DNA of 64,000 nt from an uncultured Acidobacteriota bacterium (GTDB taxonomy: Bacteria > Acidobacteriota > Thermoanaerobaculia > UBA5066 > Gp7-AA6). Of this stretch, positions 12,217 through 56,913 are shown piece by piece; position 1 is the stretch's first letter; the number at the start of each line of letters is the position of its first letter. A model generated the notes under the pieces. The model did no database searches. It was not told where the DNA came from and worked only from the letters and a program-made list of their open reading frames with translations. A program made the translations under genes and the position numbers. Where the stretch lies: positions 11,504-75,503 of the forward strand of contig CAVXTP010000001.1 in assembly GCA_963764715.1 (NCBI GenBank), read 5' to 3'.

Positions 12217-13056
12217 CTACGGAGCCCACTCGGCCTCGACCGCCGGGGTCAGGCCCGCGGCGTGCGCCCGATCGAGCAGGGTCTGGACCGCCCGGCGGCC
12301 CGCCTCGCCGTACCCCTGCGTCCAGGCGTTAACGTACATCCCGACGAATCGGTCGGCCTTTTCCCGGGGGAGCCCCCGGGCGTACTTCATGGCGTGATCG
12401 AGGGCCGCGCCGCGATGCGCCAGGCCGTACTCGATCGAGCGGGAGAGGGCGCGCGAGATGCGGCCGATCCGCTCGGCGCCGAGGTCCTTCCGGACGACGT
12501 TGCCCCCGAGGGGAAGCGGCAGCCCGGTCTCCTCCTTCCACCAGCGGCCGAGGTCGACGATTTCCGTCAGCCCCTCGTCGCGGAAGGTGAGCTGGCCCTC
12601 GTGGATGAGCAGGCCCGCACGCTCCTCGCCCGACGCCACCGCCTCCTGGATCCGGTCGAAGGAGAGCGGGCGCATGCGAACGCCCGGCGCCCAGAGCTGG
12701 AGGGCGAGCGCCGCGGTCGTCCAGGGCCCGGGCGACGCGACGACGACGTCGCCGGCGGCGATCGCGGCGCGTTCGATCGGCTCGCGCGCGACGACGACCG
12801 GCCCGTAGCCGTCGCCGAACGACGCGCCGTGGGGAAGGAGGAGGTAGCGGTCCGCCAGTCGCGTGTACGCGTGGAAGGACACGGCGGTGACGGCGAGCTC
12901 CCCGGCCATCGCGCGGCGGTTGAGCGACTCGATGTCGGACAGCTCGTGCGTGAACGCGAGGCCCTCGGTGTCGACGCGCCCCTCGGCGAGGGCGTAGAAC
13001 ATGAAGGCGTCGTCCGAGTCGGGACTGTGCGCGACGGTGATGGTCTCGGCGGTCAC
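12217..13056 (-). CDS. MqnA/MqnD-family menaquinone (futalosine pathway) biosynthesis protein
   Basis: HSPDSDDAFMFYAL N-terminal motif of the MqnA/MqnD fold. Confidence 0.5.
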   Translation of the reverse strand: MTAETITVAHSPDSDDAFMFYALAEGRVDTEGLAFTHELSDIESLNRRAMAGELAVTAVSFHAYTRLADRYLLLPHGASFGDGYGPVVVAREPIERAAIAAGDVVVASPGPWTTAALALQLWAPGVRMRPLSFDRIQEAVASGEERAGLLIHEGQLTFRDEGLTEIVDLGRWWKEETGLPLPLGGNVVRKDLGAERIGRISRALSRSIEYGLAHRGAALDHAMKYARGLPREKADRFVGMYVNAWTQGYGEAGRRAVQTLLDRAHAAGLTPAVEAEWAP

Positions 13057-13441
13057 GGGTCGGATTCTAGTCGCAGCCGGCGACGCGCGGGCGCGTCGGG
13101 ATCGCGGCCGGAGGAGACGCGAGGTCGCGCCGCGGGTCGCGGCGAGCCCGAAGTCGGGCTCCGGAGACGCCGCGGAGGTCGCGGCGACTTGACTTGCGTC
13201 CCCGCGAACGCCACAATGAAGTCAAGAGCGATTGCAAGGAAAAATCTTGTACCAACGCGAGGGATGCTTCTAAAATCAAATCGCCGGCTGGGTTGCGGCC
13301 CAACCGGCGATTTTGACGAGCGTATGACCCATCAAACATTCGGCAGCGGCAGACTGAAGGCGATACGCCCTTTGACGGGGGCGGAAAAACTAGCATCTCG
13401 CCCGAGGGCTGTCAATTGGCTGTCGGGAGGGAGGTGACGTA

Positions 13442-13501
13442 ATGGCGACGAAGAAGAAGGCCGCGAAGAAGGCGAAGAAGGCTACCAAGAAGAAGAAGTA
13501 A
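13442..13501 (+). CDS. 19-aa lysine-rich micro-protein (MATKKKAAKKAKKATKKKK)
   Basis: Strong SD (GGGAGGGAGGTGA) 6 nt upstream of the ATG, TAA stop, then an intrinsic terminator. Confidence 0.4.
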   Translation: MATKKKAAKKAKKATKKKK

Positions 13502-13534
13502 GTCAACGACTTACGCTTCGAACACGGTTTCTCG

Positions 13535-13560
13535 GGGGCCCGCGGGCCCCCTTTTTTTTC
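13535..13560 (+). terminator. rho-independent terminator GGGGGCCCGCGGGCCCCC-TTTTTTTT
   Basis: Perfect GC hairpin followed by a T8 run. Confidence 0.7.
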
Positions 13561-13609
13561 GCCTTGATTTTCACCACGAGAGGACACGCCCGGGCCGGAA
13601 CCCGCTCCA

Positions 13610-13633
13610 GACTATATCTATGTTGATATAGTC
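13610..13633. promoter_or_regulatory. palindromic operator-like site GACTATATCTA-TG-TTGATATAGTC immediately upstream of the PadR gene
   Basis: AT-rich inverted repeat 5 nt before the PadR GTG start. Confidence 0.5.
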
Positions 13634-13637
13634 GGCC

Positions 13638-14213
13638 GTGTCCCTCCCCCACCTGCTCCTCGGGTTGCTCCACGCCGAGCCGCGCACGGGCTACGATCTC
13701 GCGCGCGCGGTCCGCGACGAGGTCGACCCGGCGTGGAGCGCGGGCTACTCCCAGATCTACCCCGCCCTGGCGGGGCTGCGCCGCCGCGGGTGGGTCCTCC
13801 TCCGGACGCTGGGCCCCCGCCGCGGCCCCCCCCGCCTCCTCTACCGGGCGACCGCCGCCGGCCGCCGGGAGCTCCAGCGGTGGCTCGCGGAAGCTCCCCC
13901 GCCTCCCCGCCGCAACGACGCCATCCTCGCCCGGGTCGCGCTGCTCGACGCCCTCCCTCCCGCCGCCCGCGCCGGCGTCCTCTCGCGGCTCGCCGCGGTT
14001 CTCGCGGCGGAGGCCGACCGGCTCGAGGCGCTCGGCGCCGGCGAGGGGTCGCGCGGCTTCGCCCGGCGGGCCGCCGCGGCCGAGCGCCGGGGACTCGCGC
14101 TCTTCCTCGATCGCGGGGCCGCTCCCGCTCCCGCCGTCCGGCGCTCGGCGCTCTCCCGCCCCGGCTCGCCGCAAAGTCCTTCCGGCGCCCGCCGTCGGAA
14201 GTATCATCGGTAG
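13638..14213 (+). CDS. PadR-family transcriptional regulator
   Basis: N-terminal winged-helix PadR signature (LLLGLL...PRTGYDL...YPAL..LRRRGW). Confidence 0.6.
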   Translation: MSLPHLLLGLLHAEPRTGYDLARAVRDEVDPAWSAGYSQIYPALAGLRRRGWVLLRTLGPRRGPPRLLYRATAAGRRELQRWLAEAPPPPRRNDAILARVALLDALPPAARAGVLSRLAAVLAAEADRLEALGAGEGSRGFARRAAAAERRGLALFLDRGAAPAPAVRRSALSRPGSPQSPSGARRRKYHR

Positions 14214-22584: not shown

Positions 22585-22681
22585 CGGGGGTATCTTAATC
22601 GGTCGCTCGACGCGACCGGACGGGAGCGGAGAGCGGAATCGGCAAGATCGGGACCATCAAGAGTGTCCGGCGGCCGAAGAT

Positions 22682-22782
22682 GAGCTCAGGTTGACCTGCG
22701 GCGCACGGTGGCGCCTCCTGATCGCTGCTTCCTTCCGGACCTGACGAGGTTCGGAGACTTCCGTCGCACAGGGCCCGAACTC
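22682..22782 (-). ncRNA. ffs: signal recognition particle RNA (4.5S / ffs)
   Basis: Minus strand carries GTCAGGTCCGGAAGGAAGCAGC (the conserved SRP domain IV motif), flanked by pairing terminal segments. Sits at the usual position upstream of dnaX. Confidence 0.65.
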
Positions 22783-24000: not shown

Positions 24001-24090
<90 letters not shown>

Positions 24091-52096: not shown

Positions 52097-52173
52097 GCGC
52101 CCATAGCTCAATTGGATAGAGCGTCTGACTACGGATCAGGAGGTTGGGGGTTCGACTCCCTCTGGGCGCACCA
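52097..52173 (+). tRNA. tRNA-Arg (anticodon ACG)
   Basis: Manual cloverleaf with acceptor GCGCCCA/TGGGCGC. Anticodon loop CTACGGA. Confidence 0.85.
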
Positions 52174-53654: not shown

Positions 53655-53744
53655 GGAGAGGTGCTGGAGTGGTTGATCAGGCCGGTCTCGAAAACCGGTA
53701 GGCCCGAAAGGGTCTCGTGGGTTCAAATCCCACCCTCTCCGCCA
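53655..53744 (+). tRNA. tRNA-Ser (anticodon CGA)
   Basis: Manual cloverleaf: acceptor GGAGAGG/CCTCTCC, anticodon loop CTCGAAA, long variable arm, CCA encoded. Confidence 0.85.
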
Positions 53745-56838: not shown

Positions 56839-56913
56839 GGCCCATTCGTCTAACGGTTAGGACGCGGCCCTCTCAAGGCCGAAATACGGGTTCGATTCCC
56901 GTATGGGCTACCA
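56839..56913 (+). tRNA. tRNA-Glu (anticodon CTC)
   Basis: Manual cloverleaf: acceptor GGCCCAT/ATGGGCT, D-loop TTCGTCTAACGG, anticodon loop CTCTCAA, T-arm ACGGGTTCGATTCCCGT, CCA encoded. Confidence 0.8.

Follow-up and report, generated by a model that had tools for sequence, protein, structure and literature searches.

The 19-codon, lysine-rich micro-gene described here, from a 64-kilobase (kb) stretch of DNA of an uncultured Acidobacteriota bacterium (contig CAVXTP010000001.1; the whole stretch is called the window), can be placed beside several described systems. The small ribosomal proteins bS22, eL41/mS38, bL37, and bTHX resemble its product in that they are 24 to 33 residues long, more than half basic, and encoded by tiny stand-alone genes that annotation overlooked and cryo-electron microscopy (cryo-EM) revealed (PMC10618245, PMC12123416). 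Both bS22 and bL37 were unannotated and are encoded outside ribosomal-protein operons, and bS22 and bL38 stayed unannotated until cryo-EM (PMC10618245, PMC12123416). Attenuation leader peptides (trpL, hisL, thrL, and pheL) share with the micro-gene a very short open reading frame (ORF) dominated by the codons of one amino acid and followed by an intrinsic terminator. Riboregulators that sequester the Shine-Dalgarno (SD) sequence, such as riboswitch platforms, RNA thermometers, and ribosomal-protein leaders, share with its leader an anti-SD:SD pairing, an exclusive alternative helix, and predicted states that are iso-energetic. Histone-H1-tail-like segments, finally, combine Lys with Ala, Thr, Ser, Gly, or Pro and carry far more Lys than Arg even in genomes rich in guanine and cytosine (GC). 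Lys/Ala-rich DNA-binding segments of this kind include the C-terminal domain of eukaryotic H1 and occur in bacteria in Hc1/Hc2, in AlgP, and in the C-terminal tails of mycobacterial HupB/Hlp.

When the locus is compared with its relatives at the sequence level, the micro-gene is very probably a real, conserved, and unannotated gene with its own promoter, leader, and terminator (Table 1). On balance, we favor reading it as an independent chromosomal single-gene unit that encodes a translationally gated, polyanion-binding polycation. The more specific proposal that the peptide binds nucleic acid or another polyanion under feedback control is put forward tentatively, as we can only infer the binding partner and the feedback. 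No part of bacterial genomes is charted less well than their small proteins, and this micro-gene is among the most constrained sequences of its neighborhood.

Relatives were collected by different routes. Five (L001 to L005) were fetched through the neighboring mqnD gene alone, and a scan of one genome per species with the back-translated first 13 residues gave 68 loci. Metagenome contigs were scanned with the 27-base, leader-only pattern CTGTCAATNNNCTGTCGGGAGGGAGGTGAC, which gave at least 120 loci, 117 of them with enough downstream sequence. Because the genome scan fixed the first 13 residues, coding statistics were taken from synteny- or leader-retrieved loci only. About 50 of the 68 scan loci belong to Thermoanaerobaculia (a class of Acidobacteriota) or to "uncultured Acidobacteriota" and have the same invariant SD context; their ORFs are 19 to 20 residues long and end in ATKKKK, GGKKKK, TTKKKK, or SSSKKKK. 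MqnD lies upstream in all 108 loci with room for it, and PadR lies downstream and co-directional in 136 of 137, in neighborhoods whose flanking proteins diverge to 63% (MqnD) and 53% (PadR) identity. The micro-gene behaves as a strictly vertical, syntenic, and single-copy gene.

The coding signature is consistent across these samples. Among the matches listed from the leader-only scan, all 117 loci with enough downstream sequence keep an intact ORF, in 32 peptide variants of 19 to 26 residues, all of the form MATK(K/R)K...KKKK-stop. Differences in length preserve the reading frame without exception and occur only in the spacers of small residues (for example, MATKKKSGSKKSSSSSSRKGGSKKKK), and each of the 117 listed peptides has exactly 11 basic residues. 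Their pooled composition is Lys 1283, Ala 498, Thr 206, Gly 109, Ser 47, and Arg 4 (Lys:Arg = 1283:4), while the fraction Lys/(Lys + Arg) is 0.28 in five neighboring proteins of the genome in the window. Mean column entropy at the first, second, and third codon positions is 0.158/0.149/0.609 (96 synteny- or leader-retrieved rows), and this third-position variation indicates that the peptide is under selection. The five synteny-retrieved relatives have the identical peptide at the same place, and the only variable ORF columns in the resulting six-way alignment, five in number, are all third positions and all synonymous. The stop codon is only ever TAA or TAG across relatives. What is conserved is therefore the ORF as opposed to the mere nucleotide sequence, and the premise of the poly-Lys peptide suggested in the first-pass annotation of this DNA, namely a real, translated, and conserved product, is strongly supported by the third-position variation, the exclusively in-frame indels, and the constant count of basic residues.

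The 19-codon frame ending in TAA that the first-pass annotation described is likewise confirmed, with corrected coordinates of 13442-13501 and with 11 Lys codons in place of the 12 counted there. This frame is the sole ORF of 8 to 80 codons with at least 25% Lys in the window. Lysines make up 58% of the peptide and are its only charged residues, arranged in clusters of 3-2-2-4 with small-residue spacers, and hydrophobic, acidic, and metal-binding residues are absent. As read from the aligned sequences, selection acts on lysine specifically, in these 3-2-2-4 clusters. One codon-level detail stands apart: AAG is the only codon used at the last two Lys positions (13493-13498) in all unbiased rows, which gives a third-position entropy of zero there, while the other Lys codons are AAG or AAA; the stop-codon hairpin described below accounts for the final G alone.

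Table 1. Micro-gene unit and adjoining features, with positions counted from the first letter of the window
Feature	Position	Strand	Basis or remark
Micro-gene, MATKKKAAKKAKKATKKKK then TAA	13442-13501	plus	19 codons, 11 Lys, all AAG
5' leader, about 218 nucleotides (nt), non-coding	13224-13441	plus	First ~55 nt poorly conserved, last 124 nt highly conserved
Sigma-70-type promoter, TTGACT-17 nt-CACAAT	13189-13217	plus	Promoter scan: 1 site against 0.0 expected from shuffles
Leader hairpin H1 (CGCCGG.UGGG / CCCA.CCGGCG)	13278-13313	plus	Arms 13278-13292 and 13299-13313
Predicted leader fold A, SD free, long irregular stem-loop	13340-13426	plus	RNAalifold consensus
Predicted leader fold B, SD sequestered	13394-13436	plus	Minimum-free-energy fold of 13336-13445, -40.3 kcal/mol, z = -2.1
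SD stretch, GGGAGGGAGGTGA / GGGAGGGAGGUGA	13425-13437	plus	Upstream of the micro-ORF ATG
Stop-codon hairpin (G-UAA-GU ... AC-UUA-C)	13498-13514	plus	Consensus fold, pair scoring
Intrinsic terminator, GGGGGCC-CGCG-GGCCCCC then U8 (T8 in DNA)	13534-13559	plus	Terminator scan; 7 G-C pairs, 4-nt loop
PadR palindrome, GACTATATC-N6-GATATAGTC, perfect, 9-nt arms	13610-13618/13625-13633	plus	Inverted-repeat scan; not part of the micro-gene unit
Extended -10-like element, TGATATAGT	Within 13610-13640, ending 5 nt upstream of the PadR GTG	plus	Overlaps the palindrome
MqnA/MqnD-family menaquinone gene (mqnD-like)	12217-13056	minus	PF02621, E = 1e-73
PadR regulator gene	13638-14213	plus	GTG start

The unit occupies an AT-rich stretch that corresponds to the 580-nt gap between the divergent mqnD-like gene and the PadR gene; GC content is 0.53 to 0.62 across 13150-13650, compared with 69.3% in the whole window and 0.70 to 0.86 in the flanks. 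The AT-richer intergenic island, the strong SD, and the textbook intrinsic terminator that the first-pass annotation had described are all borne out, whereas its perfect 16-bp hairpin exists as hairpin H1 with 15-nt arms, 93% complementary, that enclose 6 nt and contain one C/A mismatch. Transcription is predicted to start near 13224, with a transcript of about 336 nt that runs roughly to 13559. All 136 distinct upstream regions from relatives contain the promoter, as TTGAC(T/A), a spacer of 16 to 18 nt, and (G/C)A(G/C)AAT, and the spacer is 17 nt long in 119 of them; its -10 element ends 211 to 234 nt upstream of the ATG, which gives predicted 5' untranslated regions of about 205 to 228 nt. 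Flanking this promoter is a perfect 8-nt inverted repeat, CTTGACTT / AAGTCAAG, whose arms at 13188-13195 and 13219-13226 cover the -35 element and the predicted site of transcription start; it may serve as an operator, or it may arise by chance from the TTGACT hexamer.

The 8-nt SD core (GGAGGUGA / GGAGGTGA) is complementary to the 3' end of 16S rRNA, lies 4 nt from the ATG, and is invariant in 46 of 46 genome or synteny rows, which were chosen by the ORF or the neighboring gene and not by the leader. The bases of the SD-AUG spacer vary, and its length is constant in nearly all rows. Within this spacer, a mutation to ATG in L004, L005, and three metagenome loci creates an additional in-frame start (MMATKKK...). 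At the other end of the ORF, one pair of the stop-codon hairpin (13502-13510) is G-C in 79 of 137 sequences and A-U in 35, a compensatory change, while its outer four pairs are almost invariant. The terminator follows 32 nt 3' of the stop codon and is kept in relatives.

Constraint on the leader exceeds that on the genes around it. Mean pairwise nucleotide identity over 39 rows not chosen by the leader is 0.885 in its last 124 nt and 0.927 in the ORF, compared with 0.767 for mqnD and 0.728 for padR, so that constraint at the nucleotide level is tighter on the non-coding leader than on either flanking gene. This constraint does not reflect a second peptide: a 37-codon frame within the leader (ATG at 13324 to TGA at 13437) is open in most relatives, yet its entropy is lowest at the third position (0.31/0.35/0.21), and single-nt indels and an ATG-to-ACG change in L031 and L050 also rule it out as a gene. 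Among 4227 Rfam families, none matches the window or 12 related loci at its gathering score, nor this region at a relaxed threshold; the best score within 13050-13700 is the 20.8 bits of PtaRNA1, whose gathering score is 47, and this match reflects a generic hairpin only. The leader is therefore distinct from the lysine riboswitch, from T-boxes, and from known ribosomal-protein leaders. A leader profile searched with nhmmer against 23 loci of other phyla likewise gives no match.

Structure was modeled with RNAalifold on 46 distinct units and then scored pair by pair over 137 sequences, as RNAalifold on a MAFFT alignment of all 137 gave a poorer and inconsistent structure. In the consensus model, 99.2% of cells are standard pairs, compared with 39 to 51% when partners are slid, and four pairs in all are compensatory, a level reached by 0 of 500 shuffles. 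The clearest covariation lies in the stop-codon hairpin and in hairpin H1. The outer 6 bp of H1 are invariant and two inner pairs change in a compensatory way (GC to AU in 5 of 137 and UA to CG in 3 of 137), and the fold of 13222-13320 has an energy of -36.1 kcal/mol (z = -3.5). The T-run that follows H1 occurs in this genome and a few relatives only, most relatives having AAGAAA or AUGAC, so that H1 is a leader element rather than a terminator; the possibility that it ends a separate small RNA of about 90 nt is ruled out on the same ground.

Downstream of H1, two predicted folds compete. Fold A consists of helices P1 (13340-46/13420-26), P2 (13348-52/13409-13), P3 (13359-63/13398-402), and P4 (13366-71/13378-83), with conserved internal loops that include GAAAAAYUAGCAY. 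At least 95% of its cells are paired, one-sided changes retain pairing (G-U to A-U or G-C), and one compensatory change falls in P3. Fold B, which comes from single-sequence folding, pairs the anti-SD CAYCUC (CAUCUC in the window; 13394-13399) with the GAGGUG of the SD core (13431-13436), and is extended by CCC:GGG pairing and a small hairpin inside. In every one of the 137 sequences the six base pairs between anti-SD and SD are of a standard type, and bases opposite G vary between U and C. Only one of the two folds can form at a time, as both use 13398-13402 and 13420-13426 and fold B excludes P1 to P3. When each is imposed, their mean energies over the 137 sequences are -38.7 (A) and -38.9 (B) kcal/mol, with A the more stable fold for 70 of these sequences. 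A longer-range anti-SD (UGACC..UC) proposed by RNAalifold is unsupported, being broken without compensation in several sequences. From these models it is reasonably likely, though far from certain, that the leader is a switch-like, SD-sequestering element. It differs from described riboregulators of this type in that it belongs to no Rfam family and precedes a 19-residue peptide rather than an enzyme, a transporter, or a known ribosomal protein, and it would represent a new candidate class of riboregulator.

Taken together, a mechanism can be proposed for the gated polycation. The conserved sigma-70-type promoter would produce an mRNA whose structured leader of about 218 nt ends in a translational ON/OFF gate, formed by the two exclusive folds of its last ~100 nt. 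In the closed state, the anti-SD CAYCUC would cover the SD core GAGGUG and block initiation; in the open state, the long-range P1-P3 stem would take up the anti-SD strand and leave the 8-nt SD free. The open gate would then yield the 19-residue peptide, expected to be 18 residues long (ATKKK...) after removal of Met before Ala. With 11 Lys and otherwise only Ala, Thr, Gly, and Ser, the peptide should neither fold by itself nor insert into membranes nor bind metals, which leaves polyanion binding as its sole obvious activity. Its only plausible action would therefore be that of a soluble polycation on a polyanion, by composition a DNA or RNA binder like a histone-H1 tail, the main alternative partner being the ribosome or a ribosomal RNA (rRNA) pocket, as for bS22/eL41. 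The simplest control circuit would be feedback, in which free peptide, or the cellular balance of polyanions and polycations, shifts the leader to its closed fold, much as ribosomal proteins regulate their own synthesis. So elaborate a translational gate would make sense for a dosage-sensitive polycation; the exact number of 11 Lys in an Arg-preferring genome and the dedicated leader, predicted to hide or expose the SD, together argue for a specific, dosage-sensitive role.

Within this proposal, composition points toward histone-H1-tail-type binders. The 117 listed peptides, when pooled, have the composition of that group: Lys and Ala with residues from among Ser, Thr, Gly, and Pro, and Lys in large excess over Arg. 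The peptide appears closer to such binders than to known ribosomal micro-proteins in that it is Lys-only in a 70%-GC genome, its spacers vary, and the same opening occurs on K/A/P-rich proteins and enzyme tails. Unlike the described segments, which are tails or repeats of 50 to 200 residues usually attached to a folded domain, the micro-gene product is a single 19-residue unit with exactly 11 Lys and its own regulated mRNA. If its role is nucleoid or ribosome binding, it would be a new component of those machineries in the abundant soil phyla Acidobacteriota, Gemmatimonadota, and Bacteroidota.

Several observations weigh against a gated, polyanion-binding polycation. Most leader pairs are invariant and only one of the four compensatory pairs lies in the P1-P4 domain, so that support for the leader structure comes mainly from conservation and thermodynamics, and the invariance of the anti-SD could instead reflect its role in P3. 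Mimicry of rRNA by the leader is at chance: the leader shares k-mers of at most 11 nt with E. coli 16S rRNA and of at most 12 nt with its 23S rRNA, lengths that about a quarter and about 10% of shuffled leaders reach, and the matched bases are not kept in relatives. No ribosomal or nucleoid genes are found in the micro-gene neighborhood. The 13-residue identity across phyla was imposed by the search pattern, and with a K/A composition convergence may account for the resemblance; homology across phyla is not established.

These cross-phylum ORFs form the remainder of the genome scan. They are mostly stand-alone ORFs of 22 to 31 codons in Pyrinomonadaceae, Gemmatimonadota, Bacteroidota (including Chitinophaga), and a metagenome-assembled genome (MAG) of Steroidobacteraceae, and share with the micro-ORF the start MATKKKAAKKAKK, which the scan pattern fixed. 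The Pyrinomonadaceae form is MATKKKAAKKAKKGGKKKAAKKR, and the Gemmatimonadota form ends in ...AAPKKKAAKKK. The amino acid pattern is kept in genomes of 31 to 72% GC, with codon usage tracking each genome. Neighbors differ by lineage (formate-dehydrogenase-like protein, alanine dehydrogenase, PAS histidine kinase, or HemD), and in Gemmatimonadota the downstream gene is convergent. The Pyrinomonadaceae leader is predicted to occlude both SD and AUG (z = -3.8), and the Gemmatimonadota leader not clearly so. It may be speculated, with less confidence than we attach to the gated unit itself, that these ORFs belong to a widespread, previously unrecognized class of encoded lysine-only polycations of 19 to 31 residues, either a bacterial protamine or "H1 tail" in minimal form or a ribosomal micro-protein of a new kind, whose synthesis in Thermoanaerobaculia would be set by a new bistable riboregulator that reads free peptide or the polyanion/polycation balance.

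Further observations concern the same scan loci. In Luteolibacter/Akkermansiaceae (Verrucomicrobia; L015, L023, L026, and L027), pyruvate phosphate dikinase (PpdK)-like proteins (KYVYTWGAGKADG...) carry an N-terminal K/A-rich tail that opens with the 13 residues of the scan pattern, MATKKKAAKKAKKP; it may have arisen by fusion, or by convergence toward a basic tail on this metabolic enzyme. An Acidobacteria MAG (L060) encodes on the minus strand, in an ORF from 6861 of the reverse-complemented locus, a 92-residue K/A/P/V-rich protein with the same 13-residue opening, (P/V)(A/V)KKAKK repeats, and a Pro/Met-rich C terminus, without a match in Pfam or NCBIfam. The Pyrinomonadaceae units (L062, L045, L054, and others) have an AT-rich UP-like element, TAATAAATTG, upstream of TTGACA-17 nt-TATATA, and a conserved 3' untranslated region of about 115 nt with two hairpins ahead of the terminator. 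About 1.4 kb upstream of the 31-residue ORF in the Steroidobacteraceae locus (L037) lies a 6S RNA (661-847; RF00013, 66 bits).

Among the alternatives to a gated polycation, the one that survives best, though we consider it unlikely, is a new lineage-specific ribosomal micro-protein seated in an rRNA pocket, as are bS22, eL41, bL37, and Thx, with the leader as its autoregulatory binding site. At 19 residues and 58% Lys, with its own promoter and terminator, the micro-gene falls within the bS22/eL41-type description of fewer than 35 residues, more than 50% of them basic, and a stand-alone gene; its size, composition, lack of annotation, and strong expression signals resemble those of bS22 and bL37, and a conserved structured leader next to the SD is typical of ribosomal-protein autoregulation. 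The known proteins, however, have a fixed length and mix Arg, His, and hydrophobic residues, as in Flavobacterium johnsoniae bS22 (MPSGKKRKRHKVATHKRKKRARANRHKKKK), whereas the micro-peptide is built of Lys, Ala, and Thr alone (with Gly/Ser in the wider set), at a Lys:Arg ratio of about 320:1, with no detectable similarity to them. Its Lys clusters are separated by spacers that vary by up to 7 residues, which would be awkward for a fixed rRNA pocket. By eye, it shows no similarity to the bS22 of Mycobacterium smegmatis, F. johnsoniae, or Borrelia burgdorferi (PMC10618245 supplement), so that identity with bS22 is rejected. Likewise, a phmmer search of PDB chains with the 22- and 31-residue look-alikes gives no match at E <= 10, a result to which low-complexity filtering may contribute and which does not extend to the 19-residue peptide, as this is below the 20-residue minimum. 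Moreover, bS22 and bL38 are already present in the ribosomes of F. johnsoniae and Porphyromonas gingivalis, while other Bacteroidota carry the look-alike ORF, and the k-mer similarity of the leader to rRNA, at chance as given above, bears on this alternative as well.

Much less probable still is the lysine- or tRNA-Lys-sensing leader peptide raised in the first-pass annotation, in which the speed of the ribosome over 11 Lys codons would gate read-through of the terminator into the PadR operon. That 11 of the 19 codons are Lys, that their number is strictly conserved while spacers vary, that a terminator stands 32 nt past the stop codon, and that PadR follows co-directionally in 136 of 137 loci would all be in keeping with attenuation. 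Yet the terminator is strong and conserved, and no antiterminator is seen: the fold of 13316-13562 and the 46-sequence consensus give only the stop-codon hairpin and the terminator, and the 5' arm of the latter, GGGGGCC, has no upstream complement. PadR, moreover, has its own conserved palindrome and extended -10-like element at its start codon. Downstream lie genes for PadR, for a 2Fe-2S protein and a molybdopterin dehydrogenase, or for an amidohydrolase, with no lysine gene among them, and the look-alikes of other phyla precede unrelated or convergent genes. The window contains neither a lysine riboswitch nor a T-box. The suggested link between such K-run micro-ORFs and lysine genes in relatives also fails, as no lysine gene follows in any lineage. 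Compared with trpL and its kind, then, the micro-gene lacks both antiterminator and biosynthetic operon, the next gene probably has its own promoter, and similar ORFs stand alone in other phyla.

Slightly less probable again is a purely non-coding small RNA of about 336 nt, in which an A/G-rich segment is open by chance. The first-pass annotation had allowed that the whole region might be a small RNA, and this holds insofar as the unit, with a promoter and a terminator of its own, is predicted to give a discrete RNA of about 336 nt, and the leader, conserved above the neighboring genes and containing conserved hairpins with some covariation, is a structured RNA; it does not hold for an RNA-only function, as the ORF has a coding signature. 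Variation in the ORF has threefold periodicity, the frame is retained through all length changes in the 117 listed loci, the 8-nt SD is invariant at fixed spacing with start and stop codons conserved, and the amino acid pattern is kept over genomes of 31 to 72% GC with codon usage following the genome. A dual-function RNA, with both a coding and an RNA role, may be involved.

The least credible alternative is that the product is exported, as a cationic antimicrobial or a peptide of the cell surface: antimicrobial activity is common among short Lys-rich peptides, and literature matches to the string KKKAAKK are only predicted or designed antimicrobial peptides and histone H1 (PMC7261198), but the micro-peptide lacks a signal or leader sequence as well as a hydrophobic face, its gene has no neighbors for transport, immunity, or maturation in any lineage, and the micro-gene behaves as strictly vertical, syntenic, and single-copy. 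Nor is a small ORF of a type I toxin system supported, since the peptide has no hydrophobic stretch and the PtaRNA1 match is sub-threshold and reflects a generic hairpin only. An origin in a mobile element was rejected too, as a plasmid search of the region (blastn) and a scan of viral contigs with the ORF pattern were both empty.

The independent single-gene unit that we favor has so far escaped annotation. The micro-gene is syntenic in every relative whose flanking sequence suffices, more than 100 in all, yet it is without a match to any curated protein or RNA family; neither Pfam nor NCBIfam has a family for the peptide. An exact look-up among about 15 billion predicted proteins, which excludes the 19-residue peptide through its 20-residue minimum, finds neither the eight peptides of other phyla nor two longer Thermoanaerobaculia forms (MMATKKK... 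and a 28-residue form from an upstream start). A full-text literature search, whose coverage is incomplete, found no description of such ORFs, and a prior description is possible. Trypsin cuts after each Lys and would reduce the peptide to di- and tripeptides, so that standard proteomics would not detect it, and the gene is so short that gene callers would miss it. The case illustrates how tryptic proteomics and minimum-length gene calling hide genes of this kind.

Observations on the surroundings of the unit complete the analysis. Homologues of the MqnD protein number in the thousands, and the closest among them (83 to 95% identity) are named Thermoanaerobaculia. Between the start of mqnD and the micro-gene promoter, at 13070-13160, lie some 75 to 90 additional GC-rich bases that are missing in L001 to L005, where the alignment shows a block of gaps. 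On the other side, the palindrome and the extended -10-like element before PadR are kept in those five relatives. They are probably the operator and promoter of PadR itself, which would give a nearly leaderless padR mRNA, and the position of the palindrome over the extended -10-like element suggests that padR is autoregulated. Elsewhere in the window, the signal recognition particle (SRP) small RNA (22681-22780) and tRNA-Ser(GGA) (24001-24089) are encoded on the minus strand, and tRNA-Arg(ACG) (52097-52173), tRNA-Ser(CGA) (53655-53744), and tRNA-Glu(CTC) (56839-56913) on the plus strand.

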